Notes: a model not told the origin generated them from the sequence alone. 32,000 nucleotides of DNA from Trichodesmium erythraeum IMS101 (GCF_000014265.1 NC_008312.1:3360001-3392000), one strand, 5' to 3'. Shown: positions 4,275 to 28,900, counted from the first letter of the stretch. Translations and numbers: made by a program.

Positions 4275-4371
4275 TAAATCCGGCTTTTAAAACCACTTTA
4301 TAATCTTCGTTTAATTCTCTTTAACTATAAAGTTAAAGTCTAAAATAACAGGTTTATAAAAACCGGATTTA
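4275..4371. repeat. Long imperfect palindrome (nested hairpin) upstream of the HAD gene
   Basis: The outer arms TAAATCCGGCTTTTAAAACC and GGTTTATAAAAACCGGATTTA are near reverse complements. At the centre is a perfect 8-bp stem, CTTTAACT (4319..4326) / AGTTAAAG (4331..4338), with a 4-nt loop. Confidence 0.5.
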
Positions 4372-4460
4372 ATATTATTTGGGGGGTTTTTTTCCCTAGC
4401 AGAAATGATAATGATATAATTTGAATTAGTAAATTGACATTCAAGCAGTTGAGATATATC

Positions 4461-6082: not shown

Positions 6083-6300
6083 GGATGACAACCTAGTTGA
6101 AAGTAATAATAGACTGGGTCTTTTGGAGATTCTTTTGGGGATAATATCCAATTGGTAGCGATCGCTCGAAAGAATATAGCAATTGTTTCCAAAGTTATAC
6201 AATTTAGATGATGGTGGTAAATTAGCACTAGGAATTTAGGGAGCTCATACCAATTCTCAAAAAGAAATCAAAGATGAGATTTTTTCTGAGCAGAAAATTA
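6083..6300 (+). pseudogene. Relic of a paralogue of the downstream methyltransferase gene
   Basis: 6191..6300 (AAAGTTATACAATTTAGATGATGGTGGTAAATTAGCACTAGGAATTTAGGGAGCTCATA...AAAGATGAGATTTTTTCTGAGCAGAAAATTA) aligns at roughly 80% identity with 7051..7163 of the intact gene and contains a TAG where the intact copy has CAG. Weaker similarity extends back to ~6083 (GATGACAACCTAGTTGAAAG versus GATATGACAGAGTTTGAAAC at ~6911). Confidence 0.55.
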
Positions 6301-6642
6301 TATAAAATTACATCCCCTCTTAAAAAATAGCTCCTGTTTCAATTCTTTCTGTTTTCTGCCTCCTACTTTCTAGTCGCCTATTTCTCTCACTCTTTATATA
6401 GGATTATTGCTATGGTAAGGTAAGAGTGATAAGATAGATATTTTAAGGGCTAAAACCCTACTGCAAACTATATACTTTTGGTTGAATTATTTGCTATTAA
6501 AAGTTTAAGTCTATTGCAATTACTAGTTTGCTTAAACTAGTCTAGGAGAGCCAAAAAAACTACTGATAATCTATTTATTTAGGTTTTGATAAATATACCC
6601 ATAAATTGGGTTGAGTTAAACATAATTGATGAGAATAAAGAA

Positions 6643-7347
6643 ATGATTAATGAGTATGTTGAGATAGCTAATTACTATGACAACGTATTGACAAGTGGAT
6701 ACTATGACTTTGATTCTCTTAGCAATACTTTGTACAATTTACTTGGTGCTAGAAGAAAGATTTTAGATATTGGCGTAGGAACTGGGTTACTTACTGAAAA
6801 AATGCTTTCTTTGGCAAACTATAAGATTGTTGGTGTTGATTTTTCTTCCCGAATGTTGGAAATTGCTAAGAAAAGATTGGCAATTTCAGATGTTAAGTTG
6901 ATTTGTCAAGATATGACAGAGTTTGAAACTGAGGAAAAGTTTGAAGCTATAGTTTCTACGGGAGGTGTTATTGCTGCTGTGGAAGAAGAAGGAGAATATA
7001 GAATTTATAGTCATATAACTGATCCAGAACAAAATAAGCAGTTGCTGGCAAAGTTACACAGTCAGTTAGATGATGGTGGATTATTAGCACTAGCAATTCA
7101 GGGACCTCATAATAATTATAAAAAGGAAATTAAAGATGAGATTTTTTATGAGCAGAAAATCAAGAAAGAGGGAAGTTATGTGGATAAGTGGTATGTTTTT
7201 TCTCAAGCTAATGGAGAAGTTCTTAAGGAACAATTTTGCCGTTTTTATTTTTTTGATGGAAAACAAACTAACCAAACTTTAATTGATGCTGGATTTCAGC
7301 AAGGATATCAGATTATTGATGGTAAGTTTTTGGTTAGTTACAAATAG
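6643..7347 (+). CDS. Class I SAM-dependent methyltransferase
   Basis: ORF-track frame 6586..7347 (TTG start), first ATG at 6643. Motif I is ILDIGVGTGLLTEKM (GxGxG), the acidic motif II is IVGVDFSSRML, and a later motif is DGGLLALAI. Confidence 0.8.
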   Translation: MINEYVEIANYYDNVLTSGYYDFDSLSNTLYNLLGARRKILDIGVGTGLLTEKMLSLANYKIVGVDFSSRMLEIAKKRLAISDVKLICQDMTEFETEEKFEAIVSTGGVIAAVEEEGEYRIYSHITDPEQNKQLLAKLHSQLDDGGLLALAIQGPHNNYKKEIKDEIFYEQKIKKEGSYVDKWYVFSQANGEVLKEQFCRFYFFDGKQTNQTLIDAGFQQGYQIIDGKFLVSYK

Positions 7348-7933: not shown

Positions 7934-8431
7934 TTAGATACTAATTAAATTTAAATCAATATCCAACTTACCTATCGAAGTCAATTTAGCATAGCGTCCG
8001 TGGAGAGTTTCGTCAAAATTATCTCCTACACTAGAAAAACTCAAACAAACTTGTAAAAAATCTGGGGGATAATAAACTAACTTCTCAGCCCATTCAATGG
8101 CGAGAATACCTAAAGGTACTTCTAAACCTTCCCAATAAATCTCTAAATTTAGGGCTTCTATCTCTGAACTTTCTAAACGATATAAATCAAAATGATAAAG
8201 AGGAATTCTGCCAGAAAAATATTCATTAATTAATGTGAATGTGGGGCTATCAATTGTTTCAGTTATTCCCAAACCTATCCCAAGACCTTGAACTAATGTG
8301 GTTTTACCAGTACCTAAATTTCCCTCCAATAAAATTACACCACCAGCAGGTAAAAATTTTCCTAAACTTTTACCAAGGTTATAAGTAGCTGCTGCATTTC
8401 CTAGTGACAAAAATACTTCTTGACTTTTCAT
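7934..8431 (-). CDS. tsaE: tRNA threonylcarbamoyladenosine (t6A) biosynthesis ATPase TsaE (YjeE family)
   Basis: 165 aa with P-loop LLEGNLGTGKTTLVQGL, then ..SPTFTLINEY.. and ..LYHFDLYRL.., the hallmark TsaE/YjeE motif series. Confidence 0.9.
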   Translation of the reverse strand: MKSQEVFLSLGNAAATYNLGKSLGKFLPAGGVILLEGNLGTGKTTLVQGLGIGLGITETIDSPTFTLINEYFSGRIPLYHFDLYRLESSEIEALNLEIYWEGLEVPLGILAIEWAEKLVYYPPDFLQVCLSFSSVGDNFDETLHGRYAKLTSIGKLDIDLNLISI

Positions 8432-8453: not shown

Positions 8454-8477
8454 AGTTATTAGTTATTAGTTATTAGT
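8454..8477. repeat. Heptamer microsatellite (AGTTATT)x3 plus a partial unit
   Basis: Direct reading of AGTTATTAGTTATTAGTTATTAGT in the spacer between the caspase-FGE gene and tsaE. It is followed by a ~45-nt purine-rich tract. Confidence 0.9.
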
Positions 8478-8522: not shown

Positions 8523-10541
8523 TTAGAGAGTTATCCCGCCATCGCAGACAACACGAAAACCGATAAAGATGAAGTGGTCGTCGCGCCTAAGAGAGCCGCT
8601 GCGAAACGCAGAACGGCAATAACTAGGATAGGAGACCCAGGAACCGCCCCGTACTAAGGCCCCAATTTCGGTATAATATTTTTTATTACTAGCAACCCAA
8701 GGACTTCCATATGTAGGAGCATAATGATAACCATCACGGGAACAATTATCAGCACACCATTCCCATACATTTCCGTGCATATCATATAATCCAAAAGCAT
8801 TTGGTGGAAATTGACCTACAGGAGTAGTTTGGTTTCTATATTCTCCTTTGGGCCCATTCCCGTAATAGTTGCCATTATAGTTAACTAACTCAGATGTTAT
8901 AGTTTCTCCAAAGTAGAAAGGTGTAGTGGTTCCTGCACGGCAAGCATATTCCCACTCTGCTTCACTGGGTAGTCTATAATTCCTTCCTGTTAATTTCGAT
9001 AGTCTTTCACAGAACTCTACTGCTTGGTACCAGTTTACCTTCTCAACTGGTCTCTCCCATCTATCTATATCTTGATATGGTTCCTTAAAGTATGATGGCT
9101 CTGGGTCTAGGTCTAAATTTACTTTCAAGTTTGTCTGAGAAGCGATCGCTCTCCACTGTCCTTGAGTAACCGGATATTTGCCCATAAAAAAGGGAGAGAC
9201 AGTCACATCGTTTTGGGGGCGTTCATCATGATAGCTACCCTCTTCACTTTCAGGAGAACCCATGGTAAAGTTACCACCAGGAATAATTACCATTTCTAGT
9301 TCTAACTGTTGCGCAATAGTTTCCCTAAAGTATTGGGTAAGCTTAGTATCTTGCTTGATAATTTTTCCCCCTCCGTCAACTGTAGGTGTTGTATACTGAA
9401 AAACCTGAAAGTCTGAAGGAAAAGGAACCCATTCTCCCAAATTTTTGGGAGAAATAAACTTTTGTAGAATTTGCCTCTGCTGGTTATTCCGTTTGTTAAG
9501 TTCCCGACCGCGATCGCTCAAAAACTTCTGAAGTTGATTTATACTCAAACTCCCTTCACTCGACCGGAGTGCTTCGTGTAAAGCATAAGTAAAACTTCCC
9601 TGCTGAAGTTGCTCAACTTCATTAGCTTCTTTACTCAAGAAAACTATCAGTTCCTGCCCATCTTTAACAGAAAAAGAAAAACCGGAAAAGAAAGAAATTT
9701 CACCAGAGATATAGTTAGTATCTAAGAACAAAATTACTTTTCCTGCACCAGAAGAAAATAATTTTTCTACAAGAGAATTAACAGAAATAGCAGTTGTTCT
9801 GAAGTCATCCTTTTGACTATCTGCTGGGATGAGATAGTCTACATCTTCTATACACTCACCGTAGCCACTAAAGAAAAACCAAAAATTATCTTCTGCTGAG
9901 AGGAAAGGTTTCTCAAATTTCTCTGCCAAAAACCTCTTAAGTCTCACTGAAATTACTTCTGTAAATAAATCAACCTTGCTAAAGTTTTTCTGCTCAAACC
10001 AATTTTTTATTACCTCTGCATCTTTAACAGCATATCTTAGAGATGGTAGATAATTATATTGGTTAATGCCCATAGCGATCGCGTGATTATTTCTAACCTT
10101 AACTCCAGCAATAATTGAGTCATCTTGTTTATCCGCAACTACAGCCACATTCTCCAAACGCAACCTTTTGAGAGGTACGCCCCAACCATTAACCAAAGTT
10201 ACTCTAATCTCTCCTTCCATCTCCTTTTGAGCAGCAGTTAATAAAAATTTTGCCGGGCCGTAAGTCCCCCCAAAGCGATGTAAAACCACTGCAGGTTCGC
10301 CGATAATTTGAATCTTAAATAATGGAGTAGTATCTCCTTGACAATAGGTATCTACCCGAAAATAAATAGGATATTCTTCCTCCTCATAATTCCATTTTTC
10401 AAAATCCTCAGTTTGTTTAATATCAATTTCCATCAAATAAGTTTTACCCACTTCTGCCGAATGGGGATAGTTAATTATAGGTTGAATTGATATAGGTAGT
10501 TGTTGAGTTTCATTCATATTTTTGGGCAAGTCAGAATTCAA
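8523..10541 (-). CDS. Three-part protein: unknown N-terminal domain, catalytically dead caspase-like (C14 fold) domain, and C-terminal FGE/SUMF1-sulfatase-modifying-factor-like domain (672 aa)
   Basis: TTG start at 10541. Residues ~150-290 (nt ~9672..10094) follow the caspase/metacaspase pattern AIAMGINQYNYL..AVKDAE..FWFFFSGYGE..KVILFLDTNYISG. Tyr stands where the catalytic His belongs (SGHG -> SGYG, Y227), and there is no Cys in the DxCHSG position (DTNYISG). Residues ~415-668 (nt ~8538..9299) carry the classical FGE-sulfatase family motifs: MVIIPGGNFTMGSP..RPQNDVTVSPFFMGKYPVTQGQW..RLPSEAEWEYACRAG..GLYDMHGNVWEWC..RGGSWVSYPSYCRSAFR. Confidence 0.85.
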   Translation of the reverse strand: MNSDLPKNMNETQQLPISIQPIINYPHSAEVGKTYLMEIDIKQTEDFEKWNYEEEEYPIYFRVDTYCQGDTTPLFKIQIIGEPAVVLHRFGGTYGPAKFLLTAAQKEMEGEIRVTLVNGWGVPLKRLRLENVAVVADKQDDSIIAGVKVRNNHAIAMGINQYNYLPSLRYAVKDAEVIKNWFEQKNFSKVDLFTEVISVRLKRFLAEKFEKPFLSAEDNFWFFFSGYGECIEDVDYLIPADSQKDDFRTTAISVNSLVEKLFSSGAGKVILFLDTNYISGEISFFSGFSFSVKDGQELIVFLSKEANEVEQLQQGSFTYALHEALRSSEGSLSINQLQKFLSDRGRELNKRNNQQRQILQKFISPKNLGEWVPFPSDFQVFQYTTPTVDGGGKIIKQDTKLTQYFRETIAQQLELEMVIIPGGNFTMGSPESEEGSYHDERPQNDVTVSPFFMGKYPVTQGQWRAIASQTNLKVNLDLDPEPSYFKEPYQDIDRWERPVEKVNWYQAVEFCERLSKLTGRNYRLPSEAEWEYACRAGTTTPFYFGETITSELVNYNGNYYGNGPKGEYRNQTTPVGQFPPNAFGLYDMHGNVWEWCADNCSRDGYHYAPTYGSPWVASNKKYYTEIGALVRGGSWVSYPSYCRSAFRSGSLRRDDHFIFIGFRVVCDGGITL

Positions 10542-10638
10542 AAATGATAATAATTATGTGAGAATAACTATGTATATTATTAGTAAAAGTCATTAAAAAA
10601 ACAGATCACAAATAACAGATAATTAAAAAAGCTGATAT

Positions 10639-11970
10639 TTAAATACCTTCTTTTTTCAAAAGCTCCAATTTAGCCATAGGGTTCCCATAATAAATATACA
10701 TAAAGGTATAAATAAATAAATATTTATTCTCATCATTACCTTTCTGACGCTGATATTCATCAGCAGCTTTCCGTCGGAGATTTTTTAAAATTGTAGCGAC
10801 AGAAAGATGGGGATATTTTTGACATTCTTGAAAGAAATTACGAGAAATTTTAGCTGCATATGTATCATAAACTTCACATAATGTTCCTATGACTCCCTCA
10901 GCTCCTTTTTCTAAGAAAAATGTAGAAAACCCTATGGGATATTCTTGTCCTATTGTAGGGTTAGTATCAATAATTTTTAAAGTATCATTTTGTTGTAAAC
11001 GTCCAGAGTTACAAGCATTCATAAAAACAATTGAACCTTTTTTGAAAAAATTAAAATCATATTCATATAAATCATATACAGATATTTGTTGTGTCTCATC
11101 TTTTTCTCCTAGTTTACTTTGAGATAAATCCTTATCAAAAAAACCATGACTGGCGATAAAAACTAAACTAACCTCTGAATTAACTTGATCTAAATTAACT
11201 TTATCTAAATCATCAAAAAAATTTCGTACATTGTCATAAATAGTCGAATGAAAAACTTCTATAATCTCCTTTTCTTGCTCAACTTCGGGTAAATCTTTAG
11301 TATTTAGATAAGCTACTATTTTACCGCAACATTTTTTTTCTGTAACTTCTAAATTAATGAAGCCATTAACGTTATCTAAATCTTCTGGATTTGTAATATC
11401 TTGCCATCTGACTGTAACGAGAGAAGCTCCTAAATAATCATTATTTTTCAATTCCAACATTTCCCAAGGAATTTCAAAAGTTGTACGGTCATTAATAATT
11501 AAATAAGAGAAATTATGTTGTCTTTCTTGTAATTTTTCTTGTAATTTCAGTAGCCATCCCCTAATTTTTTTAGCCTGAGAATTTTTCTGAGAAAACATCC
11601 GCATTATACCGGGAGTTTCTTCTAGATTTAGATTGATAATGTTATCAAAAGATATTCTTGGAGCTGGAGTAGGGTCAGTATGTAATTGTTCGCCTATTTT
11701 TAACGAGCCGTGACGGCAGCGAATAATTATATTATCATTATTATTATTAGGAGATTCTACTTCTAAAAAAGCAAATTTCCAATCAAATTTTCCATCTAAT
11801 TTAATGCCAAAACTCTCAGAAAGTGAGCTTTTATTATTATCAGTCAACCCTTCAATTTTTTCCAGCTCTAATTCTTGATCATTGAGTAATTTATCCGGAG
11901 ATTCTCCTTGGGCAAATAATCTACTTGGATAAGGACTTTGTTGATTTTTTAGCTTTTGAATTGGATTCAT
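10639..11970 (-). CDS. CHAT-domain (caspase-superfamily) protease with an uncharacterised N-terminal region (443 aa)
   Basis: The CHAT pattern is present: ..TFEIPWEMLEL.., His in VSLVFIASHGFF (H275, nt 11146..11148) and Cys in SIVFMNACNSGR (C320, nt 11011..11013), then GAEGVIGTL. The first ~150 aa match no family I recognise. Confidence 0.85.
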   Translation of the reverse strand: MNPIQKLKNQQSPYPSRLFAQGESPDKLLNDQELELEKIEGLTDNNKSSLSESFGIKLDGKFDWKFAFLEVESPNNNNDNIIIRCRHGSLKIGEQLHTDPTPAPRISFDNIINLNLEETPGIMRMFSQKNSQAKKIRGWLLKLQEKLQERQHNFSYLIINDRTTFEIPWEMLELKNNDYLGASLVTVRWQDITNPEDLDNVNGFINLEVTEKKCCGKIVAYLNTKDLPEVEQEKEIIEVFHSTIYDNVRNFFDDLDKVNLDQVNSEVSLVFIASHGFFDKDLSQSKLGEKDETQQISVYDLYEYDFNFFKKGSIVFMNACNSGRLQQNDTLKIIDTNPTIGQEYPIGFSTFFLEKGAEGVIGTLCEVYDTYAAKISRNFFQECQKYPHLSVATILKNLRRKAADEYQRQKGNDENKYLFIYTFMYIYYGNPMAKLELLKKEGI

Positions 11971-11972
11971 TA

Positions 11973-12012
11973 AACTAATAACTAATAACTAATAACTAAT
12001 AACTAATAACTA
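11973..12012. repeat. Heptamer microsatellite (AACTAAT)x5 plus a partial unit; reverse complement of the AGTTATT family
   Basis: Direct reading of AACTAATAACTAATAACTAATAACTAATAACTAATAACTATAG, starting immediately upstream of the CHAT start codon (11970). Confidence 0.9.
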
Positions 12013-12237
12013 TAGCAACTTCCACAGTATTTTGAGTATATCAAACTTGCTGAGGTACAACTAGTAATATACACCTAATCTTGGTGAGGCACACCTATCC
12101 CGGGCAAGATGCCGGCACTAGAAACATTTAATTTTTAATATTTGTACTTTGTATACTTGGAATTTGCTGCAAAATTTAACCTTTGACTTAATTTTGACTT
12201 TCTTCTAGCCTTTTACTTTTTAGTTTTGATTTTTAAA

Positions 12238-14190
12238 TTAATTGTGACTTGTAATTTCCCAATTTTCCACAGGTGGAATAGACAAAATTTTTGCTCCTAA
12301 TGCTTTCGCTAATAGTAATGGTAAATCAGGATATTGTTTAGATTGAGGATTAAGAAATATAGTTTCTAAATTACCTAAATTACTAATTTTTCGAGCAACT
12401 TCCAAAGCATCTTCTACCCCTTTTTTCCCCACAGGAGGCTTAATTTTTCCTACATGACTTGCTTCCAAAGGAACATTACCTCTACCATCACTAACTACCA
12501 CTAATACCGCTTTTTGTACAGTATTTTTCCCATGTTGTAAAGCATGACGAAGAGTTTTCAAAGCCAAGTCAAAGCCATGTGCCAAAGGTGTAGCTTTACC
12601 TTTTTTAGTCTTTTCCAAGTCTAGTCCCATGGCAATTGTAGGTACCAGAATATTTTGACCAGATATTTTTTTAGCCCGTAATTCTACAGGATTAATTGTA
12701 ACATTTGACTGGTTATTATCTAATACGATAGAGTTCGGAGCAATACCAACTTGAATTAAACCAACACTTGCTCTTTGGCTGTAAGCCCAACTAAGATAGG
12801 GCAATAATTTTTCTTCCCATTGACAATATTCTAAACAAGTATAATCTAGTAAAAGCATGAACATCTGTTCCGCAACGGAAGCGCGACGATAACGATATAA
12901 ATCAGAGGGCAATATTTTCAATTTATGATAATTATTACCCTGTTTTTTCTGACGAATTTTCTGAAATTTAGCTGCTTCTAATAGACTCCTAACTATAGCT
13001 AAATCATTAGCGTTAGTAGTTTTTTCTAGCCCAAGAATTGTGCCACAATGAATAGTTTTAGATTGAGAAATACGGGTAGGTAATTTAAGGGAATCTATTT
13101 CTCTTTCTAATGAAGTAGTATCTTCTATATAAGGATTTTCTAAAAGTGTAATTTCTGGCAAATCAGTATCTGGAAAATAATTAGATACCTGTGATTGATA
13201 AACAGGAATTTCTGGTGGATTATTTGATAAAGATTCGTCTTTAATTTCTGATAATTCGGGTGATCTTCGTGGTTCAAAATCATTATCTTCTGTCTCTGGT
13301 TGTGGATTGAAACTCTTAAAATCAATAGAATTATTAATATTATTTCTTTCTAACTTCAATCCCATAATTTTAGCTACTTTATCCACATGCTTAACTGTGA
13401 CTGAATCTGCTGCTTCTAATTGAGCATAGGTACTTGCAAAACGAGCCAAAGCAATTTCTCGCCGATGATAAATATTTGACTCATAATTATAATTTAAAAT
13501 TGTCTCCAAAGCTGATGGTGTCATACTTGGTAAAGAGGAACGAATTTGTCTCAACCATTCCTGTAATTCTGGTTCAATTTTCCTTTCTTCAAACAATAAT
13601 TTTTGTGGTTTTTCCGGACTATTTAATAACTTTTGAATCTGAGTTACTCTCTTATCATTATTCTCAATTTGTTGTATATTGAGACGCAGGGCAAACCTAT
13701 CTAATAAATGAGGTGAAATCTTACCAATTTCCTCATTCTGACTCGAACAACCAACTAACCAACAAAAATTAGGTTGCCAATATTTATGTTGTCCGTGACG
13801 CTCTAAATGTGCGACATCTGCTCCCATCAATACAACACAAGCCCTCATAGCTGCTAAACTTAATTTAGTCAGATCTGGAATAATTACTAACTTAATTTCA
13901 TTCGTATTATCTGCACTACTAAATAATCCAAATTGCCAATTAAAAGCTTGTTTTTCCAACTCATCCCCTAGCCCAACTTGCCCCCATAAATTATCCTCTG
14001 ATTCAAAAGTTCCCAACTTCAACGGAACAACTTTTTCACATTCTGTTGTTACTTTAAGTAGAGACACTAAAATACCAGCAACTTGCTGCAAATTATTAAT
14101 AGAAATATCAAACAGCAAAATACTGCGTAACTTGGAATTAAGCGCTACACAACAAAGAGATTTCATTAAAGAGCTTTGAATATTTACCAT
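12238..14190 (-). CDS. Mg-chelatase subunit D (ChlD/BchD)-like protein: P-loop-less AAA+ domain, acidic/Pro-rich linker, C-terminal vWA domain (650 aa)
   Basis: The N-terminal part aligns to the ChlD AAA module (..KLVIIPDL.., ..ISPHLLDRFALRL.., lid ..IALARFASTYAQLEAADSVTVKHVDKVAKIM) but has no GxxGxGK(S/T). The linker is FNPQPETEDNDFEPRRSPELSEIKDESLSNNPPEIP. The vWA domain has GKATPLAHGFDLALKTL and AVLVVVSDGRGNVPL. The first MIDAS motif reads LLLDYTCLE (DxTxL instead of DxSxS). Confidence 0.8.
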   Translation of the reverse strand: MVNIQSSLMKSLCCVALNSKLRSILLFDISINNLQQVAGILVSLLKVTTECEKVVPLKLGTFESEDNLWGQVGLGDELEKQAFNWQFGLFSSADNTNEIKLVIIPDLTKLSLAAMRACVVLMGADVAHLERHGQHKYWQPNFCWLVGCSSQNEEIGKISPHLLDRFALRLNIQQIENNDKRVTQIQKLLNSPEKPQKLLFEERKIEPELQEWLRQIRSSLPSMTPSALETILNYNYESNIYHRREIALARFASTYAQLEAADSVTVKHVDKVAKIMGLKLERNNINNSIDFKSFNPQPETEDNDFEPRRSPELSEIKDESLSNNPPEIPVYQSQVSNYFPDTDLPEITLLENPYIEDTTSLEREIDSLKLPTRISQSKTIHCGTILGLEKTTNANDLAIVRSLLEAAKFQKIRQKKQGNNYHKLKILPSDLYRYRRASVAEQMFMLLLDYTCLEYCQWEEKLLPYLSWAYSQRASVGLIQVGIAPNSIVLDNNQSNVTINPVELRAKKISGQNILVPTIAMGLDLEKTKKGKATPLAHGFDLALKTLRHALQHGKNTVQKAVLVVVSDGRGNVPLEASHVGKIKPPVGKKGVEDALEVARKISNLGNLETIFLNPQSKQYPDLPLLLAKALGAKILSIPPVENWEITSHN

Positions 14191-14549
14191 AATTATGGAA
14201 TAGTAATTCTGTGATTAATTACCGGCTTTTTCTGTGACTTTTTGCCAAGGATATAATTAGGGTTTGCTAACTAAATGAGGACTTACCCACGGGCACTACA
14301 CGAGAGCAAAGGCGAATGCCAGAAAGTCTCTACATATAGTATTTTCAAGGTGAATTGGTGTAAGTCTTGTCAATATAATTTCCCGTTGCTCTGTAGGAAT
14401 GTTGCATGCAACCTCCCTACTTCTCATCCTGGGAGATAAGATGTTAGCAGTGGGTCTACTCCCAGGAGTGGTTAGGAGTGCTTCCACCAGTTCCCCTACC
14501 TAGAAGGAAAAAGCCTTATGCCCTAACATATATCGCGGTTCTGGGCAAG
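14191..14549. other. GC-richer, hairpin-rich ~360-bp spacer or insert between the ChlI-like and ChlD-like genes (candidate MITE or structured RNA)
   Basis: The spacer is unusually long for two genes that normally abut. It has a perfect 8-bp stem CCTGGGAG (14428..14435) / CTCCCAGG (14459..14466). It also has a nested hairpin GTAGG-AAT-GTTGCATGCAAC-CTC-CCTAC (14393..14420) containing a 12-nt palindrome. Composition is visibly GC-richer than the flanking genes. Confidence 0.3.
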
Positions 14550-15497
14550 TTATGTTAATATATTCTTTACCTTATTCTCATCTTCATCAGTCCAAGGAGG
14601 TTGGGTACTTTGGAGAAATTCAGGGCGACGGTGTTGCAAAACTAATTGAGCGACTGCTTGAATATGCTCAATATTTACCTGTTGAAAACCATGCAAAGCA
14701 GCATAGGCACGGGAAGCTAGGGCAATTACATAATCTGCTCTGTTTCCTTCTGCCTGAAAAGCCGCCGTCAACTCTACACAATATTCGATCGTATCCTTTG
14801 GTATTTTTATCTGACGAACATTATTTTTTGCATCCTCTAACTTTTGTTTGTATGCTTGATCCTTTTCCCTAGCTTTATCAATATATTCAGAAGATGTACC
14901 TTGAGAAAAGTCGAACATTGCCTGATCCCATTCCATAACTGTTTGTAAAATTTTCATCCGTTCTTGGCGGTCAGTTTGTGCCTTGATATCCACCATCAAG
15001 CCAAACCTATCTAATAACTGAGGACGCAAACCCCCCTCCTCAGGGTTCATGGTACTTACCAAAGTAAACGATACTGCCTCTTCCATTCGTTTTCCTTCTC
15101 GCTGCACCACTAAAACTCCCGTAGAAGTAACATCAAGAATAATATTGACAATATGATCGTCAAGTAAATTCACTTCATCAATATAAAGTAACTTATCATT
15201 AGCTTCTTTGAGCAAACCATCTTGCCATTTTGCTTCACTCTCCATTAACTGACTAATTTCCCAACCTCCCATCACCCTGTCTTCTGTAGCATTTATTGGT
15301 AAAGTTACAGGTAATTTTTGTCCATCATTACCGAAAACGCTCTCACTGCAGTTGACTTACCTGTTCCTCGCTATCCGCTTAACAAAACTCCCCCAATACG
15401 AGGAACAATATAAGCTAATTCTAATGTAAGTTTTAACTTTTCCTGACCAACAAGCAAAGTGTAAGGTAATATTTTTTTTTGCTATGGGATGTTCCAT
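14550..15497 (-). pseudogene. Mg-chelatase subunit I (ChlI/BchI)-like AAA+ ATPase, disrupted in the Walker A region
   Basis: The 241-aa ORF (14550..15275) covers ..DRVMGGWEIS..LLYIDEVNLLDDHIVNIILDV..FTLVSTMNPEEGGLRPQLLDRFGLMVDI.. (Walker B, sensor and BchI motifs). Upstream, my minus-strand translation finds ATG 15497..15495. It also finds the missing N-terminus, KKILPYTLLVGQEKLKLTLELAYIVPRIGGVLLSG*RGTGKSTAVRAFS, in a different frame, with TAG (15373..15371) inside the P-loop. Confidence 0.75.
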
Positions 15498-15623
15498 CGT
15501 CAAAAATTAAGGTAGTTAGAAACCAGCCAGTTTTAAGGGCTGGATGAAAACAACAGATATAGCTTAATGGAAAAACTAAGTCAAAAGAAAAAAAGAGTGA
15601 ACTTTCTTAATTTTTAAACATGA

Positions 15624-15665
15624 TACCTAATACCTAACACCTGAAACCTAAAACCTAAAACCTAA
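15624..15665. repeat. Heptamer microsatellite, six units of (T/A/C)ACCT(A/G)A
   Basis: Direct reading of TACCTAATACCTAACACCTGAAACCTAAAACCTAAAACCTAA in the spacer between the Trypco2-like gene and the ChlI-like gene. Confidence 0.85.
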
Positions 15666-15682
15666 CATCCTATATATAAATA

Positions 15683-16036
15683 TTACTCTTTTAATTTCCA
15701 TTTCATGGTAACTTCCATTTGCGCTTCTGCACCTGCTTTTGCCAACATTGGTACACCTGCCTCAGAATCTAAAGTAATTGACAATTTCATTTCAAATTCA
15801 TTAGGTTTAATATCATCGCTCATTTGGTTGACACTTTCTATGACTTTAGCAGCACAATTACGAGTTAAAGCCAAACCATCCCCAAATAAATCCTTTGCTG
15901 CCGCAATAACTTCTTTTCCCGAATTACCTCGAGACAAAGGCTTAGGATTATTTTGAACTTTAAAATCATCATTAACCTGAATATTGATTTCAATTTTTTC
16001 ATTGCCAAGTTGGCTAATGGTTTTAACAATTGCCAC
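15683..16036 (-). CDS. Small alpha/beta protein resembling the Trypco2 / CU044_2847-type family (117 aa)
   Basis: GTG start at 16036. The C-terminal half, ..PNEFEMKLSITLDSEAGVPMLAKAGAEAQMEVTMKWKLKE, matches from memory the characteristic pattern (EFGhKLxxEAGxxIAKxGxEAxhxVTLxW) of the small trypsin-co-occurring domain proteins seen in NTPase/protease conflict operons. The two overlapping ORFs (15705..15956 plus strand, 15865..16062 minus strand) are shadows. Confidence 0.6.
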   Translation of the reverse strand: MAIVKTISQLGNEKIEINIQVNDDFKVQNNPKPLSRGNSGKEVIAAAKDLFGDGLALTRNCAAKVIESVNQMSDDIKPNEFEMKLSITLDSEAGVPMLAKAGAEAQMEVTMKWKLKE

Positions 16037-16184: not shown

Positions 16185-17561
16185 CTAACTTCCACTATAC
16201 CACTGAAATAAAACCTGAGCCAACATCGTAGAATCATGGCGAACAAAACCATTTTGTTCGTCCTCATACATAACATTAGTTAAAAGAATTTTCCGCCCCA
16301 AATTGTTAACTGCTTCTCGGTCAAGAAAAACCGGATGAGAATTTTCTTGAGCATACTTAATTAATGCTTGTGCCGAAGGACTTTTTCCCTGTACTAAAAC
16401 AGTATCAAATAATCTTTGACCACAAGCAACATCAATAGCACAAATATGGTCAGCCACACTATATCCAGTAGTTTCTCCAGGCTGAGTCATAATATTACAA
16501 ACATAAATACTAGGAATATTTCTACAAGCGATCGCCTCAGCAATTTCAGGTACTAATAAATTAGGAATAACGCTAGTATATAAACTACCAGGACCAATAA
16601 TAATATAGTCAGCTTCTTCTATAGCTTGCAAAACCTTAGGCAAAGCCGGAGGATGTTCAGGAGTACAGCCAATTTTAACAATTTTGCCCCCTGCTTCAGT
16701 AATATTAGACTCCCCCTCAATGTGTCGTCCATCAGCTAACTCTGCCCACAAATACACATCAGTAAGAGTAGCAGGCAAAACCTGACCTTGGACAGCTAAA
16801 ACCTTTGAACTAGCAGCAACAGCCCGTTCCAAATCTCCTGTCACCTCACTCATAGCTGTCAGAAACAAGTTGCCAAAACTATGCCCTACCAAACCATCAC
16901 CAGCCTTGAAGCGATACTGAAATAATTCAGTTAATAACTTTTCCTCGTTAGCTAAAGCCGCCAAACAATTCCGAATATCTCCTGGTGGGAGTACCCCTAT
17001 TTCTCGGCGCAACCTACCAGAAGAGCCACCATCATCAGCCACCGTAACAATAGCAGTAATATTTGCACTATAACTCTTGAGACCCCTTAATAAGTTGGAA
17101 AGACCAGTACCCCCACCAATAGCGACAATTTTGGGACCTTTATTTAATCGCCGATGAGTGAGTAACCGGTCTACAAGTTGTTCATCTCCTTCTGGCATTA
17201 ACGCTTGGGTAATAGTTTTTAAGCTGCGGTTTTGGCCTAGAAAGATTAATAGTAAGCCAACAACAATAATTATTGGGCCAGAAATGTACTTAGGGACTAT
17301 TGTTGTTACCCACCCTAAAAATTCCCTAATTGTTTGTAGGATGTAAAAAATAGGAGTCATTCCCGTCCATATTGCCAGCCCTAAACTAGTTAGTAGTACA
17401 CCAGCAGCACTTAAAAGTAACCACCGTTTGACAAATAATCCTGGGGCGAGCCATTTGAACCATTGACTAACTATTTGATAGTTACTTTTTTGAGGTTTTG
17501 TAATAGGGAAGTTTTTCTTCAGAAAGATACGTAGAGTTTTCTTAAATAAACTAGTTGACAT
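16185..17561 (-). CDS. yvcK: YvcK/CofD-like (UPF0052, gluconeogenesis factor family) protein with an N-terminal transmembrane extension (458 aa)
   Basis: Family motifs are [37 protein letters not shown], ..GHSFGNLFL.. and ..[18 protein letters not shown].. They are preceded by 2-3 hydrophobic helices ([31 protein letters not shown]). Confidence 0.9.
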
Positions 17562-18570: not shown

Positions 18571-18834
18571 CTGAGACTCAGCATCCAGGTTGAAATACAT
18601 AAGGCGAATATTTTTTTTTAACATTGAAATAGTAGGTTATTAACCTGATTTTTTTGCTCAGAAGTTAGGAAACCAAAAATTGTTTTAGTTATTAGTTATT
18701 AGTTATTAGTACTGAGTAGCCCTCAGCATCTAGATTGAAATACACAAGAGGAATATTTGTGTCCAAACCTTGAAAGGGCAGCTATTATCAGAATTTTTTG
18801 GTAAATTGAACTCAGAAGTCAGAAGTTGTTTTGG
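18571..18834. repeat. Imperfect tandem duplication (~125-140 bp x2) in the mlaF-like/mlaD-like spacer, with an (AGTTATT)x3 microsatellite (18687..18710) at the junction
   Basis: Unit 1 is CTGAGACTCAGCATCCAGGTTGAAATACATAAGGCGAATATTT...CTCAGAAGTTAGGAAACCAAAAATTGTTTTAG. Unit 2 is CTGAGTAGCCCTCAGCATCTAGATTGAAATACACAAGAGGAATATTT...CTCAGAAGTCAGAAGTTGTTTTGG. Each unit begins with a small CTGAG..CTCAG hairpin. Confidence 0.55.
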
Positions 18835-22537: not shown

Positions 22538-25500
22538 TCACCACGAGGAATATTTTCGGACTATTTGTTGATAAAAATCTTCTAAGGCATTGACACAAGT
22601 TTGGTCATCAAATAGATAATTATGGCGTAAACTCATCCTCTGAGAAATGTCATTTCGCCAAGCAGTTTCTAAACCTAATTTAACAGCAATATGAATATAT
22701 TCTGCTTCATCTTTAGCAATAGTATCTATAACTCCCAACATTTTTAAGAAACTATCTGCATGACGACTGCGCATAAATTCTCCAGGACAAGTTACTATCG
22801 GTAAATTACAAGCGATCGCCTCTAAAGAAGTATTCCCACCAGACCAAGTAAAAGTATCTAGAAAAACATCTGAAAGTAGATTTAACATCAAATAATCTGA
22901 CCTTTCTGGAATCTTTAAATGAACACAATAATCTTCACTATTTAACCCTCTAGAATAAAAAGCTTTTTCTAAACGAGGTTTTAATAAAGTTCCTCTGAGA
23001 AAAACAAATTTTGCTTGGGGAACTCCTAAAGCTATTTCTGGGAAAATATAATCATATTGAGGCAAATATTTAAAAGGTGCTTGACAGCATAAATAAATAA
23101 CTCCATCTTCAGGTAATTGGAATTTTTTTTCGCCCCTAACGCTCTTTGGAAAAGGGGGAATAGTCTGTTTTTTTGTCAGGTTAGTAATGTCTTTAGGTTC
23201 AGGATAAGCCACCCCAATATTAGGTAGTTTAATTAAAGTTTCTGAGTAATGTTCTTGAGCATTTTCTGGCTCCATTAATTCACTGGATAGAAAATAATCA
23301 ATAGTTGGTAACCCTGTAGTTACTGGATGGCCCCAGGCAGTACATTGTATAGGTGCTAACCGCAAGGCTGCTATTTGCATTGTGGGTGGGTCCATACCTA
23401 TTTCGGGATAGACTAATATATGTAGTTTATCATTTAATATTTGTTGGCAAACTGCGGGTAAATTGCCTGGAATATGATGAAATTTATGGCTATATTGACG
23501 AAATTTTTCTGTTATTGGGTCAGGAGAATTACCAGTATAATAACAGTAAATTTCAAAATTTTTATGGTCAGCATAACGTAACCAACCTATTAACCACAAG
23601 CTGCCACTATAAGAATGTAAATAGTTGGAAATATAGCCAATGCGGATTTTATTTTCTACGGGTGGAATGGATAATGGTTGTATGTATTCTGGATAATTAG
23701 CTCCTAGAATTTTATGGAGAAAATTACCATAGATAATTTGAGATTTTTGAACATTATGAGCTTGATAAGCTAAGTAAAAATTAGTGAATCTGCTAGTACC
23801 TAAAAGAGCGTTTTTTCGCGATTCAGTATTTTCTAAATTGGTTGTTTTTATGAGGTTTTGTATTTCGGTTTCAAATCTTTGGCGATAAAAGCTGATTGAT
23901 TCTGGACTGTGGTAAATAATGGGAACTATTAAATGTTTTAGGAGTTTAAATGTGTAATCTTGGGGCAGGTTTTGTAAAGCTATTTCTGCTTGAGATATTG
24001 CTTGTTCAGTTCTCCCATTTTGTAATAGGGTCATAATTAAGTTAAAATGGAGCTGTCCTGAATTGGGGCAGGTTTGGGTACCCTCTTGGAGAATGTTTAT
24101 AGTTGCTTGTTTTTGGTCTAATTGTTGATAACATTCTGAGAGAAAAGAATAGACTTGAGTATCTGTTGGTTGAAGTTCTAGATATTTACGATATTCTAAA
24201 ATTGCTGTTTCATATTTTCCTAATTGTTGCAGTCTTCGTGCCCAATTTAATAATATTGGGGCAGGGTTATTTTTTGCTCGAAGAGCGATGTTGAGATTGT
24301 TAGCTATATCTGAATTTTCGGGATTGATTTCTAGGGCCTTTTCATAATTAGCGATCGCCAACTCAACTCGATTTTGTTCGAGCATTAAATTACCTAGATT
24401 AATATAACTTCCCCAATGGTTGGGGTTAATAGAAATGCTCTGGCGATAAATAGTTTCTGCTTGTTCAAATTCACTTTTTGTCTTGAGGAGATTGCCTAAA
24501 TTATTATAAGGATCTATGAAATTAATATCTAGTTTAATTGCTTGTTGGTGGGAGGCGATCGCTTGTTCAATTTGATTGATTTTTTCTAACCCTAAACCCT
24601 GGTAGTAATATCCATAACTTGATGGTTCTATTTCTAAAGATTTAGATATAGCTGAAATAGACTGTTGATAATTTTCTATTTGATAATAAAGCACTCCTAA
24701 TTGTAACCAAACCAGGGAATTATTAGGTTGCCATAATAATAACTCTTGATATTTTTTTTCTGCTAATTGCCATTGCTGTTGTTGGTGTAAATATATTGCT
24801 TCTTCATAGAACAACTGCCTGGATGATTCTGTCTCCCATTGTTGTAGATTAGAAATGGCTGTAATGACATTTTGTTGACGATTATTAATAATCCTAGAAG
24901 GTGGATAATTATGATTTCTTTCACTGTCAAAACTTAGGAGTTGAATCCCATTACCAAATAAGTGATTTATTTGTGCAAATTCTGGTAATTCTGATAATAT
25001 TTTATATTGAGGAAAACTAGCCATTAAATCCCAATAAGCTTGCTGTACTAGACTTTTATTAGAATTATTAATAACCACTAATGCTTTTTTAGATAAAAAA
25101 GGCTTAATTAACATTAATCCTAACAGTACGGAGCGATATTCAGGAGAGCCATTATAGAAATAGACACCAATATTATTTTCTGTTTCTATTTCTCGTAATT
25201 CTAATAAAAATTCTTCTAGATCTTGGTCACAAAAAAAGACCTGTGATTCAAGATTAAATTGCTGCAAATTTTCTAATAGTTCTTGTTGTAGTTCTCCAGT
25301 AGAATCAAAGTTAGAAAAGTTGTTAACTGCATAGGCCATTTTTTCGGTATGCTCAAATAATGCTCCGATTAAAGTGAGACCTTGAGTAGTGCCTATCTCG
25401 CAGTAAATCTCATCTGGTTCTGTGTGTTCTACAGCGCTGTTGAGTAGTTTCATGAGGTTGAGGGTGTTGACGTTGGGTTTAGGGGTGAGGGTTTTTGGCC

Positions 25501-25582
25501 ATTGGTCAGATGGTTGAAGGGAGTTATTGCCCCAGTTTTGGTAATTAGTGGGAAGTTGTTGGATGAATTTTTGGTAGTCCAT
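22538..25582 (-). CDS. Fusion protein: N-terminal class I methyltransferase-like domain, TPR array, C-terminal GT41 (SPINDLY/OGT-like) glycosyltransferase (1014 aa)
   Basis: The N-terminus has ..DEIYCEIGTTQGLTLIGAL..AYAVNNF..ALVVINN.. The middle has many 34-aa TPR units (e.g. AEKKYQELLLWQPNNSLVWLQLGVLYYQIENYQQSI). The C-terminus has the typical bacterial GT41 pattern: IRIGYISNYLHSYSGSLWL..CTAWGHPVTTGLPTIDYFLSS..DVFLDTFTWSGGNTSLEAIACNLPIVTCPGEFMRSRH. Confidence 0.85.
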   Translation of the reverse strand: MDYQKFIQQLPTNYQNWGNNSLQPSDQWPKTLTPKPNVNTLNLMKLLNSAVEHTEPDEIYCEIGTTQGLTLIGALFEHTEKMAYAVNNFSNFDSTGELQQELLENLQQFNLESQVFFCDQDLEEFLLELREIETENNIGVYFYNGSPEYRSVLLGLMLIKPFLSKKALVVINNSNKSLVQQAYWDLMASFPQYKILSELPEFAQINHLFGNGIQLLSFDSERNHNYPPSRIINNRQQNVITAISNLQQWETESSRQLFYEEAIYLHQQQQWQLAEKKYQELLLWQPNNSLVWLQLGVLYYQIENYQQSISAISKSLEIEPSSYGYYYQGLGLEKINQIEQAIASHQQAIKLDINFIDPYNNLGNLLKTKSEFEQAETIYRQSISINPNHWGSYINLGNLMLEQNRVELAIANYEKALEINPENSDIANNLNIALRAKNNPAPILLNWARRLQQLGKYETAILEYRKYLELQPTDTQVYSFLSECYQQLDQKQATINILQEGTQTCPNSGQLHFNLIMTLLQNGRTEQAISQAEIALQNLPQDYTFKLLKHLIVPIIYHSPESISFYRQRFETEIQNLIKTTNLENTESRKNALLGTSRFTNFYLAYQAHNVQKSQIIYGNFLHKILGANYPEYIQPLSIPPVENKIRIGYISNYLHSYSGSLWLIGWLRYADHKNFEIYCYYTGNSPDPITEKFRQYSHKFHHIPGNLPAVCQQILNDKLHILVYPEIGMDPPTMQIAALRLAPIQCTAWGHPVTTGLPTIDYFLSSELMEPENAQEHYSETLIKLPNIGVAYPEPKDITNLTKKQTIPPFPKSVRGEKKFQLPEDGVIYLCCQAPFKYLPQYDYIFPEIALGVPQAKFVFLRGTLLKPRLEKAFYSRGLNSEDYCVHLKIPERSDYLMLNLLSDVFLDTFTWSGGNTSLEAIACNLPIVTCPGEFMRSRHADSFLKMLGVIDTIAKDEAEYIHIAVKLGLETAWRNDISQRMSLRHNYLFDDQTCVNALEDFYQQIVRKYSSW

Positions 25583-25929: not shown

Positions 25930-28900
25930 ATGTCAGAGGATAAAGTATTGGAGGAATTAGAAAAAGCTTATAAATTATTTAGGCAAGGTAAATTTAAGGA
26001 AGCAGTGCAGTTATATAAAGAATTAATCACTAATAACCCTGACCTAGCCAGGAGTGGAATCAATATTAACCTAGCACATAGTATTATTTTATCTACAGAT
26101 TGGTCTGATGTTTCACAAAACTTACCACCTGGTATAAATTATCCAGAATCATCAGGCTGGATAAATTCCTTAATGACTGGTTTACCTATCAATTATGATT
26201 CAAAACCTATCCCCTGGTACACCTATCCAGCTATAGAGTTTATAGAAAATAAGATAGCATCAGATTTTCAGGTTTTTGAATATGGAAGCGGGCAATCAAC
26301 ATTGTGGTGGGCTGAAAGAACATTAAAGGTAATTTCGATTGAAAGTAATCGAAACTGGTTTTCTGATCTTCAGGAAAAAATCCCCAATAATGTAGAACTA
26401 AGCCTTAGTGAGAATGAAGAAGAATATGCAGCCAACATCAATAGATATCAAAATAACTACTTTGATGTAATTGTTATAGATGGTATTAATAGAAATAGGT
26501 GTGTAGAATTAAGTTTAAGCAAGCTCAAAGAAACAGGATTTATTATTTTTGACAATACAGATGATTATCAGTACGACTTGGGTGTAAGACTTTTAGAATT
26601 GAAAGGATATAAAAGAATAGATTTCTATGGAATGATTCCAGGGTACACTTACAAAAATTGTACGTCAGTTTTTTTTAAAGATAGTAAAGTTTTAGATAGG
26701 GGAGGATTACCTAGCGAGAAAGAGTCTTGCTTAGGACTTTCTTGTTTTCAAGTAACTAGCCCTAGATCTAAAAATAATTGTATGTTAAAAGAATCTAATA
26801 TTGCTGAATGTCAAGCTAAGTTTAATCTTAGTTATCACGTTCCTTTTGCCCGTATATGTCAAGATTTAGTAGGTTTTGAAGGTAAAGATGTTTTAGAAGT
26901 AGGTGGGAGTTTACCACCAGAATTTGTTTTTGATTATCTTCATGTTAAGTCTTGGTCAGCAATAGAAACTCCAGATTATGAAGAATCCCTCAAGGAAGCA
27001 GGAGGACTATCTCATACAGGAACAATTATTCCTAATATTAAAGATACTTCTAATTTAGGTTTTGATAATAGAAAACTAGAAAAATATAATTTCTTCTTAG
27101 AAAATATAGAAAATCTTCCCGAGGAATATTACGGAAAGTACGATCTAATTTTTTCTATTGCAACTTTCGAGCATATTCATAAATTACCAGCTGCTTTAGA
27201 TAAAATGTTTCTGGCTTTAAAACCAGGAGGCAAATTATTCTCTATGTTTTCGCCTATTTGGTCAGCCTACGATGGGCATTATTTGCCAAAAATAACTGAC
27301 CAAGCAGGCAAAGTTTTTAACTTTGGCAATTCGCCTATCCCACCTTGGGGACATTTGTTAATGAAGCCTGATGAACTATGTCATTATTTATATCAATATA
27401 CTGATCAAGAAACAGCAGAATTGATGGTTGATTATGTTTATAATTCACCTCATATTAATAGGTATTTTACAGAAGATTATCTAGAAATTGTTAAAAGGAG
27501 TAAATTTCAAAGTAAGCATATAGAATTAATATTTGAAAATCCTATTGATGAGAAAACTCAAGAGAGTTTAGAACAGTTATATCCAAATAAAAGAGAATTT
27601 TCCAACAATGGAATATTAGTTGTACTTGAAAAAAATAGTTCGGAAGATAATATGATGACTGAGCAAATAACTATGATACCAGCTTACCAAAGTACCAAAC
27701 AAGAACTCGCATCTAAAGTGTTCGACTCAATAACCAGTCCGAAAGTTAAAGAAAGAGTTTACTCTGTTATTAGCCTTTTAACTCAGGATCGTTGGTTATC
27801 CAATGATTTGAGAAATTATTCAAGTTCATCTGCTCAAACACAATCAAAATGGTTTGATTTAATTTCGTTTTTAAACTGGTGTGGGCATAATTTTAAACCT
27901 AAGAATTATCTAGAAGTAGGTGTGCGTCGGGGGCGTTCTATGGCCCAGGTTTTAGTAGAATCCCCCGATACTAATGCTTATGGTTTTGATATGTGGATAC
28001 CTGGGTATGCTGCTGAAGATAATCCCGGTCCTGAGTTTGTACGTTCAGAGTTAGAAAAGTTGGGAATCAAAAAACAGCCAACTTTAATTAGGGGTGACTC
28101 TCACGAAATGCTCCCATCTTTTTTTGCTAATTCAGATAATCCCCAAGAATTTGACCTAATTAATATAGATGGAGACCATACTTACTCCGGTGCCAAAATG
28201 GATTTGGATATCGCCTTTACTCATTTGGCATCTGGTGGAGTATTGGTTTTCGATGACATTGCTCACCATGCTCATCCTGAGTTGGGTGTTTTGTGGAACG
28301 AGTACAAGAGCAAATATCAAGATTATTTATTTATTGATGATCACTATGCCACAGGAACAGGAGTAGCTTTTAAGCCTCCTTTTTCTAAGTTATCACAAAT
28401 ACTTGCAACGTTACCCATTCATTTCTTTACCATTGTCCTTAACGGCCAACCATTTATTCGCTACCACATCGACATTTTCAAGCAACTTCCCTTTAAGTGG
28501 CATTGGCATATTATTGAAGGTGTAGCTGACTTAAAACACGACACTGGTTGGAGCTTGCAGTTAGGGGGAAAAATAACCGATGAAATTCATAAACAAGGTC
28601 GCAGCAAAGATGGTACATCGGAATATCTAGACGAACTTGCAGCCAAATACCCAGAAAATATAACTCTTTACCGCAAACCAGAAGGAGAATTTTGGGATGG
28701 CAAACGGGAAATGGTTAACGCGCCTTTGAGAAACATAAAAGAAGAATGTTTGCTGTGGCAGGTAGATGTTGATGAAATCTGGACTTTAGAACAGATTTGT
28801 AATAGTCGGAAATTGTTTATTAAAAATCCAGAGAAAACGGCGGCGTTTTATTGGTGTTGGTATTTTGTGGGAGAAAATCTGGTTATTAGTAGCCGCAACT

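Follow-up and report, generated by a model that had tools for sequence, protein, structure and literature searches.

A candidate conflict cassette in Trichodesmium erythraeum with a chelatase-type AAA+/vWA motor, a CHAT protease and a hypervariable proposed sensor

We analyzed a cassette of five consecutive minus-strand genes in a 32,000-nt stretch taken from the genome of Trichodesmium erythraeum IMS101 (GCF_000014265.1, NC_008312.1:3360001–3392000; hereafter the window, with positions counted from its first letter). With slightly better than even confidence, we read this cassette as a conserved five-gene conflict system (abortive infection or programmed death) of multicellular bacteria, in which a sensor would signal through an AAA+/vWA pair that licenses a CHAT protease, leading to a Pepco pore. 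The parts of the cassette are recognizable and their order is conserved, the protease is intact, the tip of the sensor is hypervariable, and the ATPase is dead in this copy. A first-pass annotation, made by reading the sequence, had proposed a conflict or cell-death system here; it was right in outline, and it overlooked three things: the link to a diversity-generating retroelement (DGR), which protein is likely to be the executioner, and the broken state of this copy.

In transcription order, the cassette encodes a small protein of the Trypco1/Pepco family (15683–16036, 117 aa, GTG start), which is probably a latent pore-forming effector; a ChlI/BchI-like AAA+ ATPase, identified as a pseudogene by three-frame translation and comparison with an intact allele (14550–15497); a ChlD/BchD-like protein with an N-terminal AAA-like region, an acidic/Pro linker, and a C-terminal vWA domain (12238–14190); a stand-alone CHAT (caspase-fold) protease (10639–11970; PF12770, E = 6e−16); and the proposed sensor, hereafter gene 5 (8523–10541), which combines an Ig-like N-domain, a dead caspase domain, and a domain of the FGE/C-type-lectin fold. 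The cassette is flanked by a CofD/YvcK-family gene (16185–17561; PF01933, E = 1e−118) and tsaE (7934–8431; PF02367, E = 8e−33), both on the minus strand and outside the system. This layout was as first described, and the earlier coordinates and most of the earlier domain calls proved correct. The ChlD-like protein is 100% identical to one encoded in a T. erythraeum MAG, in keeping with the origin of the window.

Five genes in conserved order

Cassettes were surveyed with a ChlD-like profile scanned against one genome per species, which gave 80 loci, and the open reading frames (ORFs) of these loci were then searched with the window proteins. The roughly 79 bacterial loci were distributed over four phyla, and their hosts were mostly filamentous cyanobacteria, actinomycetes, Chloroflexota, and Sorangium, a list that is enriched, in descriptive terms, for multicellular or filamentous bacteria. 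Among the loci informative for each gene, the ChlI-like gene lay directly upstream of the ChlD-like gene in 72 of 74 and the CHAT gene directly downstream in 67 of 69; a homologue of gene 5, recognized by its first ~140 residues, was found in 66 of 67, and Trypco1 upstream of the ChlD-like gene in 55 of 68. All five genes occurred in the same order (Trypco1, ChlI-like, ChlD-like, CHAT, gene 5) at 50 of the 61 informative loci, or at 51 if one further locus (L054), flagged solely for over-extended ORFs, is included. The scan was silent for the representative genome of T. erythraeum, which may reflect masking, and we do not claim absence of the cassette from that genome.

CobN homologues were encoded at none of the ~79 cassette loci, whereas they were encoded at all six archaeal loci with ordinary ChlI/ChlD pairs recovered in the same scan; the test therefore favors a role other than metal chelation. 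A large subunit encoded at a distant site in the genome would have escaped this test. The first-pass annotation had judged such a role unlikely from the lack of ChlH or CobN nearby, and had suggested examining gene neighborhoods for recurrence of these genes away from chlH and cobN. Both points were borne out: across many genomes the genes are found together with their order kept, and none of these loci has CobN or ChlH alongside. In a relative with a 78% identical ChlD-like protein (L003, 1–8016), the cassette adjoins genes for a TRADD-N+pentapeptide protein, a NERD/UvrD-like helicase, and a T5orf172 protein, surroundings that look like a defence island, unlike the housekeeping flanks in Trichodesmium.

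The two motor proteins are related to chelatase subunits. The ChlI-like protein matched NCBIfam TIGR02030 (1.6e−72) and TIGR02442 (3e−89) and the Pfam families AAA_5, AAA_lid_2, and bpMoxR; its best solved relatives were BchI (1G8P, 6e−56) and ChlI (6L8D, 6e−54), and the same search of the PDB returned no MoxR-type structure at E 1e−3. The ChlD-like protein had no match in Pfam; it matched TIGR02442 in a full-length alignment (9e−29) and TIGR02031 (1e−26), and the profile of its family matched the AAA domain of ChlI (1e−6) and the vWA domain of BchD (2X31 chain A, 5.5e−4). These matches support the earlier assignment of the motor to the chelatase I/D type rather than to classical MoxR. Neither protein reached the equivalog cut-off of its family, with 244.6 bits against 466.95 for the ChlI-like protein (TIGR02030) and 93.8 bits against 499.55 for the ChlD-like protein (TIGR02031). 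The ChlD-like protein lacks a P-loop, reads IIPDL at the Walker B position (13858–13884), and carries SPHLLDRF at 13693–13716; in its vWA domain, T534 and D568 are conserved after the DYTCL motif, and ATPLAHG (12574–12594) and SDGRGN (12475–12495) are present. Its earlier description as a P-loop-less AAA region joined by an acidic/Pro linker to a vWA domain was confirmed. For the ChlI-like protein, the assignment to the AAA+ family held, and what had been taken for a working gene is a pseudogene in the window.

The CHAT protease retains an intact catalytic dyad, as first reported, with His275 in SHG (11146–11148) and Cys320 in NACNSG (11011–11013); both codons were checked, and at least 90% of 61 CHAT orthologues keep both residues. 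The small protein had been called Trypco2, which was wrong: it matched Trypco1 (PF19493, E = 1e−17) and NCBIfam CU044_2847 (E = 1e−14), not Trypco2. Of the profile matches anticipated for the cassette, those to CHAT, Peptidase_C14, FGE-sulfatase, and CU044_2847 were obtained, and Trypco2 and a Pfam match for the ChlD-like protein were not. Single-sequence PDB searches with the CHAT protease, the caspase domain of gene 5, and Trypco1 gave chance-level matches only.

Experiments have shown Pepco (Trypco1/2) to be a protease-activated pore-forming toxin linked to Ser or Cys proteases, and the tested homologue works in an anti-phage system (Evans et al., bioRxiv 2025, 10.1101/2025.11.14.688446). 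Here also a small Trypco-family protein is encoded with such a protease, CHAT, in the same cassette. Because the family is known to be a protease-activated pore toxin, Trypco1 is likely the executioner of the cassette rather than an accessory, a role missing from the earlier reading. Its Arg36 (15929–15931) belongs to an otherwise variable acidic/Pro-rich linker, yet 58 of 59 orthologues share it; as a speculation, this residue may be a cleavage site for the caspase-fold protease.

The proposed sensor and its hypervariable tip

Gene 5 likely starts at the ATG at 10517, judging from orthologues and from the called genes of two related contigs (L002 and L097). Its first domain (10137–10490) is homologous across loci; nothing else in the cassette is as conserved as these N-terminal ~125 residues, which contain the motifs YPREA, YEEEEYP, and HRFGGTYGP. 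This N-domain had no match in Pfam, was previously unannotated, and was passed over in the first-pass annotation. An AlphaFold2 model predicts an all-beta, Ig-like/macroglobulin-like sandwich of nine strands (pLDDT 88; best PDB TM-score 0.61). We rejected its identification as a published effector-associated domain (EAD), given the all-beta fold and the lack of a Pfam EAD match. In a library of 1.84 billion, the domain had 456 cluster representatives, and it was N-terminal in all 150 of the matches listed. Ratios of dN/dS against relatives ranged from 0.14 to 0.53, with 0.14 for the N-domain; selection on the cassette is purifying, and its evolution is fast.

The modules that follow the N-domain vary by locus and include caspase+nSTAND1, CHAT+STAND+TPR, TIR+NB-ARC+TPR, NACHT, Roc-COR, and CHAT+FHA, as well as a response regulator, HTH, or dead caspase+FGE. 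By their domain content, these modules (nSTAND1, NACHT, NB-ARC+TPR, TIR, Roc-COR, CHAT/caspase, FGE) are those of immune receptors, and the N-domain is the mark by which the variable sensors are tied to this cassette. In the window, the N-domain is followed by a caspase-fold domain (9519–10085; PF00656, E = 2e−8) that has lost both catalytic residues, with SGYG (9858–9869) and DTNYISG (9702–9722) in place of the catalytic His and Cys, and by an FGE-sulfatase-like domain of the C-type lectin fold (8547–9296; PF03781, E = 3.9e−57), in agreement with the dead caspase–FGE fusion first described. The embedded caspase or CHAT domain is dead in the Trichodesmium clade only; at several other loci it keeps its catalytic residues (GHG, DCSHSG). 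At three loci (L016, L024, and L045), a caspase or CHAT domain with intact catalytic motifs is built into gene 5 itself, on top of the stand-alone CHAT protease, which suggests a two-protease cascade; at L040, no more than a possible Cys motif was noted.

At its 3′ end, the FGE domain contains an 80-nt variable region of the DGR type (8562–8641, minus strand), followed by an invariant 3′ stretch beginning GGTTTTCGTGTTGTCTGCGATGG. Compared with a 99%-identical strain (L002), this region carries 19 substitutions, 16 of which fall at codon positions 1 and 2, against a divergence of ~0.8% elsewhere. Wild contigs of ~99%-identical strains carry three variable-region alleles with an identical 3′ flank, and many metagenome contigs break exactly at the variable region. 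Seven independent tsaE-bearing Trichodesmium contigs (L099–L105) start within ~1.1 kb upstream of tsaE, inside or just past gene 5, which suggests that assembly was interrupted there because the gene varies within the population. A C-type-lectin/FGE fold with a short 3′ hypervariable region and a conserved stretch is what is expected of a DGR target. This hypervariability strongly backs the earlier proposal that the FGE-like domain may be a ligand sensor, although the DGR link itself had been overlooked.

No reverse transcriptase (RT) or Avd gene was found in the 32-kb window. In Aphanizomenon (L001), bAvd and RT (RVT_1) genes come next after the cassette, and in a relative with a 78% identical ChlD-like protein (L004), bAvd does. 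Remote DGR targets are known in T. erythraeum: Pfreundt et al. (2014) report the template repeat of its DGR and at least 12 dispersed targets, all with this domain at their end, including the caspase-domain (caspase-FGE) protein Tery_2077. Gene 5 of the window resembles this published DGR target of strain IMS101. The template repeat was sought in several ways. An A-free 17-mer scan of viral contigs gave chance matches only; an anchored pattern searched in metagenome contigs retrieved sequences resembling template repeats and variable regions from other cyanobacteria and none from Trichodesmium; no Trichodesmium protein was among the 120 matches listed for the Aphanizomenon RT; and no template repeat was found in the Aphanizomenon locus. 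An AAC-rich, template-repeat-like sequence from another cyanobacterium (L093, ~4337–4399, minus strand) has an A-free core, TTGCCGTTCTGCGTTTCGC, in common with the variable region of the window, and this core seems to be widely conserved among cyanobacterial DGRs.

Decay of the ATPase and surroundings of the cassette

The lesions of the ChlI-like gene were defined against an intact 315-aa allele on a wild contig with a 99%-identical ChlD-like protein (L096). The window copy has an additional A in an A-run near 15480, a CAG-to-TAG change at 15373–15371 within the P-loop GQRGTGKST, and a 1-nt deletion near 15321, and only a C-terminal 241-aa ORF (14550–15275) remains open. With two frameshifts and a stop codon, the ATPase is dead, and this copy therefore cannot act as the ATP-driven switch that had been proposed for it. 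Among close strains, the number of lesions is graded: zero in L095, L096, L005, and L007, one in L002, two in L094, and three in the window. On this comparison, the copy in the window is most likely switched off or uncoupled, and intact alleles persist in the population. Relics were also seen elsewhere. A decayed cassette in Dolichospermum (L106, 6932–9537), which adjoins a transposase-like gene, retains a 253-aa protein without a Pfam match, CHAT, and a 178-aa N-domain stub, and Leptolyngbya has a single N-domain stub (L107, 9001–9375). The graded lesions and these relic cassettes are consistent with the turnover typical of defence genes.

The cassette had been taken for an island, and its CHAT and ChlD-like genes had been described as more AT-rich than the flanks. 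The description fits CHAT, whose GC content of 0.298 is clearly under the window mean of 0.345, and does not fit the ChlD-like gene, which at 0.336 is close to tsaE (0.331). In addition to this weak composition signal, the slot next to the CofD/YvcK-family gene also holds the cassette in a Trichodesmium lineage with an ~88% identical ChlD-like protein, and the island reading is therefore not supported. In a plasmid collection, ChlD-like homologues occurred on only two large actinomycete replicons, with no sign of plasmid mobility.

The microsatellites and the insert reported at the gene junctions are real. Heptamer microsatellites, (AGTTATT/ACTAATA)n, occupy three intergenic spacers (8454–8476, 11974–12010, and 18685–18710), two of which are cassette junctions, and the stretch that separates Trypco1 from the ATPase pseudogene has a TTAGGT-like run (~15624–15668). 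The insert is a 359-nt spacer between the two motor genes (14191–14549), which in other genera usually abut or overlap by a few bases. Its blastn matches were confined to Trichodesmium loci, with no second copy in the sequences compared, and it corresponds to no known RNA, as an Rfam scan of the whole window gave zero matches. A promoter and terminator scan was uninformative. Away from the cassette, part of a methyltransferase gene (6586–7347) has a 95-nt copy of 86% identity just upstream (6204–6298 against 7066–7160), either a gene fragment or a partial duplication. A 1770-aa ORF (25930–31242) encodes two methyltransferase domains and a group-1 glycosyltransferase domain and contains a 300-nt internal direct repeat (30420–30719 against 30846–31145, 94%); its neighbor encodes a TPR + GT41 protein (22538–25582, minus strand).

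Proposed mechanism, alternatives and relation to known systems

In the proposed conflict system, a ligand derived from an invader would be bound by the variable module of gene 5, here the dead caspase and FGE domains, with a tip that would be rewritten by a remote DGR. In Mg-chelatase, ChlH docks on ChlD. By analogy with this docking, the vWA domain of the ChlD-like protein may engage the Ig-like N-domain of gene 5, perhaps through the invariant acidic motif YEEEEY. ATP hydrolysis by the ChlI-like ring would then remodel the complex and license CHAT, which would clip Trypco1/Pepco, possibly at the invariant Arg36. A pre-assembled Pepco beta-barrel could thereby turn into a membrane pore, and the infected cell would be killed. 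A more specific version, which we hold as possible at somewhat less than even confidence, is a distinct, unnamed immune pathway in which ChlH, the porphyrin-binding client of the ChlI/ChlD motor, has been replaced by the Ig-like N-domain carried on NLR-like or DGR-diversified receptors, and in which ATP hydrolysis, coming after pathogen recognition, licenses a proteolytic death cascade from CHAT to Pepco.

Several points weigh against this interpretation. The order of events and the contact between the vWA domain and the N-domain are only what we infer, and the metal site of the ChlD-like vWA domain is non-canonical, D-x-T-x-L (DYTCL, 12832–12855). Trypco1 is missing from ~19% of the loci. The tested Pepco protein is cut at its C-terminal tail by a serine protease, whereas Trypco1 of the window has no tail past the conserved core, and its activation must therefore differ in detail. 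The ATPase is broken in the window, yet the other four genes are still open, and these four could therefore have motor-independent roles. The window offers no phage or mobile-element context. Finally, the template repeat is absent from the window and was not retrieved, and A-specific mutagenesis is thus not shown for 8562–8641.

Instead of acting against invaders, the cassette might be a module for host-programmed death or developmental proteolysis, for example in bloom collapse or trichome fragmentation, that is triggered by internal stress and whose DGR-diversified lectin recognizes ligands from the cell itself or from its environment. Programmed cell death and genes of the caspase family have been discussed for Trichodesmium, the cassette has housekeeping genes as neighbors and keeps its synteny across the genus, and cyanobacterial DGR targets have been proposed to act in the tuning of signalling, of differentiation, or of cell death (Vallota-Eastman et al. 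2020; Pfreundt et al. 2014). We nevertheless regard this explanation as rather unlikely, because hypervariation of the binding site and NLR-like STAND/TIR modules fit fast-evolving non-self recognition, frequent decay and a patchy distribution would be unusual for a core developmental pathway, and the tested Pepco homologue works in an anti-phage system (10.1101/2025.11.14.688446). The AAA+/vWA pair and CHAT might also process a regulator within a non-lethal signalling complex, with Trypco1 as a mere adaptor; this fits the response-regulator, HTH, FHA, or histidine-kinase-like domains of some gene 5 variants, the first description of Trypco as a co-occurring adaptor-like domain (Kaur et al.), and the regulatory tuning favored by Vallota-Eastman et al. 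(2020). However, cleaved Pepco is toxic (10.1101/2025.11.14.688446), gene 5 is dominated by TIR, caspase, and STAND modules, and the phyletic pattern agrees with that of predicted conflict systems, so that we consider a signalling complex improbable. Neither host death nor signalling explains the NLR-like modules, the hypervariation, and the frequent decay as well as a conflict system does.

It is very improbable that the two motor proteins serve a true metal chelatase (Mg, Co, or Ni) whose large subunit is encoded elsewhere, with unrelated genes as neighbors. Its closest solved relatives are indeed BchI, ChlI, and BchD, and several databases name homologues "magnesium chelatase subunit D"; but the scores fall far short of what an equivalog would need (for ChlI, 245 bits where the cut-off is 467; for ChlD, 94 bits where it is 500), CobN was found at 0 of ~79 cassette loci against 6 of 6 archaeal control loci, and the co-linearity with CHAT, Trypco1, and the N-domain gene spans phyla. 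A true chelatase role is thus nearly excluded. Like Mg-chelatase (ChlI-ChlD-ChlH or BchI-BchD-BchH), the cassette has both homologous motor subunits and keeps the ChlD layout of a degenerate AAA region, an acidic/Pro linker, and a vWA domain; unlike it, the cassette has no ChlH or CobN, sub-cut-off scores, an altered vWA metal site, and a presumed client that is an immune-like cassette protein.

The proposed conflict system has several relatives among known or predicted systems. Ternary MoxR-vWA systems, with VMAP, iSTAND, FtsH, beta-propeller, iSTAND2, and TERNS3 types, have been predicted in multicellular bacteria, with links to caspase or trypsin peptidases, Trypco, FGS, and DGRs (Kaur et al. 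2020, 2021). Those systems and the cassette alike combine an AAA+ ATPase of the MoxR/chelatase assemblage with a vWA protein and have links to peptidases (caspase/CHAT, trypsin), Trypco domains, STAND/TIR/FGS modules as effectors or sensors, and DGRs, and both show enrichment in the multicellular members of Cyanobacteria, Actinomycetota, Chloroflexota, and myxobacteria. In contrast to those systems, the motor of the cassette is of the chelatase I/D type, which Kaur et al. name only as a sister subclade; its vWA domain sits on a ChlD-like pseudo-ATPase that ends with the vWA domain and lacks a C-terminal effector fusion; its third component is another one; the gene order is Trypco1, AAA, ChlD-like, CHAT, sensor rather than VMAP, MoxR, vWA; and the variable modules are carried by a separate N-domain protein rather than on or next to the vWA protein. 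No cassette gene matched Pfam VMAP-C (the third components of iSTAND and TERNS3 systems were not searched for), and an HTH_VMAP-M9 segment was found inside gene 5 of one relative only (L001). Membership in the beta-propeller ternary system was rejected: the bpMoxR match in Pfam is weak (3e−8), and the vWA-propeller fusion, the membrane-spanning third component, and the phyla do not fit.

Pepco-protease modules, such as that of Streptomyces subrutilus with Pepco and Avs4-trypsin, resemble the cassette in having a small Trypco-family protein (117 aa here) beside a protease in multicellular bacteria, and the sensors of that family include FGE and STAND domains. In the cassette, however, CHAT stands alone and is not fused to a sensor, the genes for toxin and protease are separated by those of the AAA+/vWA motor, and Trypco1 of the window has no counterpart of the C-terminal tail at which the tested protein is cut. 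The Type III-E CRISPR Craspase (Csx29 TPR-CHAT) is a further parallel: there a sensor acting upstream licenses a CHAT protease to cut a dedicated substrate, which is what we propose for the cassette, and a weak NCBIfam match was seen (3.5e−7, far under the cut-off); the cassette has no CRISPR component, and licensing would come from the AAA+/vWA motor rather than from RNA-guided Cas7-11.

The DGR loci of cyanobacteria are related in another way. Like the clade 5E loci and the multi-target DGR of T. erythraeum, the window has an FGE/C-type-lectin target with a 3′ variable region, and a caspase-FGE target is listed there; unlike them, its RT, Avd, and template are remote, and its target is not the vWA protein. 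Dore et al. (2024) describe in general terms cyanobacterial DGR loci with "MoxR ATPase", vWA, peptidases, and Trypco adaptors, and these probably include loci like this cassette. The searched passages of Dore et al. (2024), Vallota-Eastman et al. (2020), and Pfreundt et al. (2014) do not define the five-gene cassette, the chelatase-type motor, or the N-domain. PADLOC gave no system-level match and has no model for the cassette, and a full-text literature search found no paper on a chelatase-type motor with CHAT or defining this architecture. The earlier claim of novelty thus stands insofar as no named PADLOC system and no defining paper were found, and was overstated insofar as general descriptions of similar cyanobacterial DGR loci already existed. 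We would class the cassette with the predicted NTPase-regulated conflict systems, as a distinct and unnamed variant that is related to Pepco-protease modules and is neither a VMAP/iSTAND member nor a chelatase.

The graded ATPase decay among near-identical wild Trichodesmium provides a natural experiment in which to study what such a cassette costs, and how it turns over, in a globally important nitrogen fixer. If the proposed pathway is correct, a tetrapyrrole-chelatase motor would have been re-used as an immune switch, and the receptor-docking Ig-like domain would mark several hundred NLR-like proteins as clients of a chelatase-type switch. This would be a new coupling of STAND/NLR-type sensors, and of an adaptive-like hypermutating sensor, to an executioner. 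A receptor hypermutated by a DGR would thereby be joined to a defined downstream pathway of motor, protease, and pore, and the "antigen sensor" idea for cellular DGRs would become directly testable.

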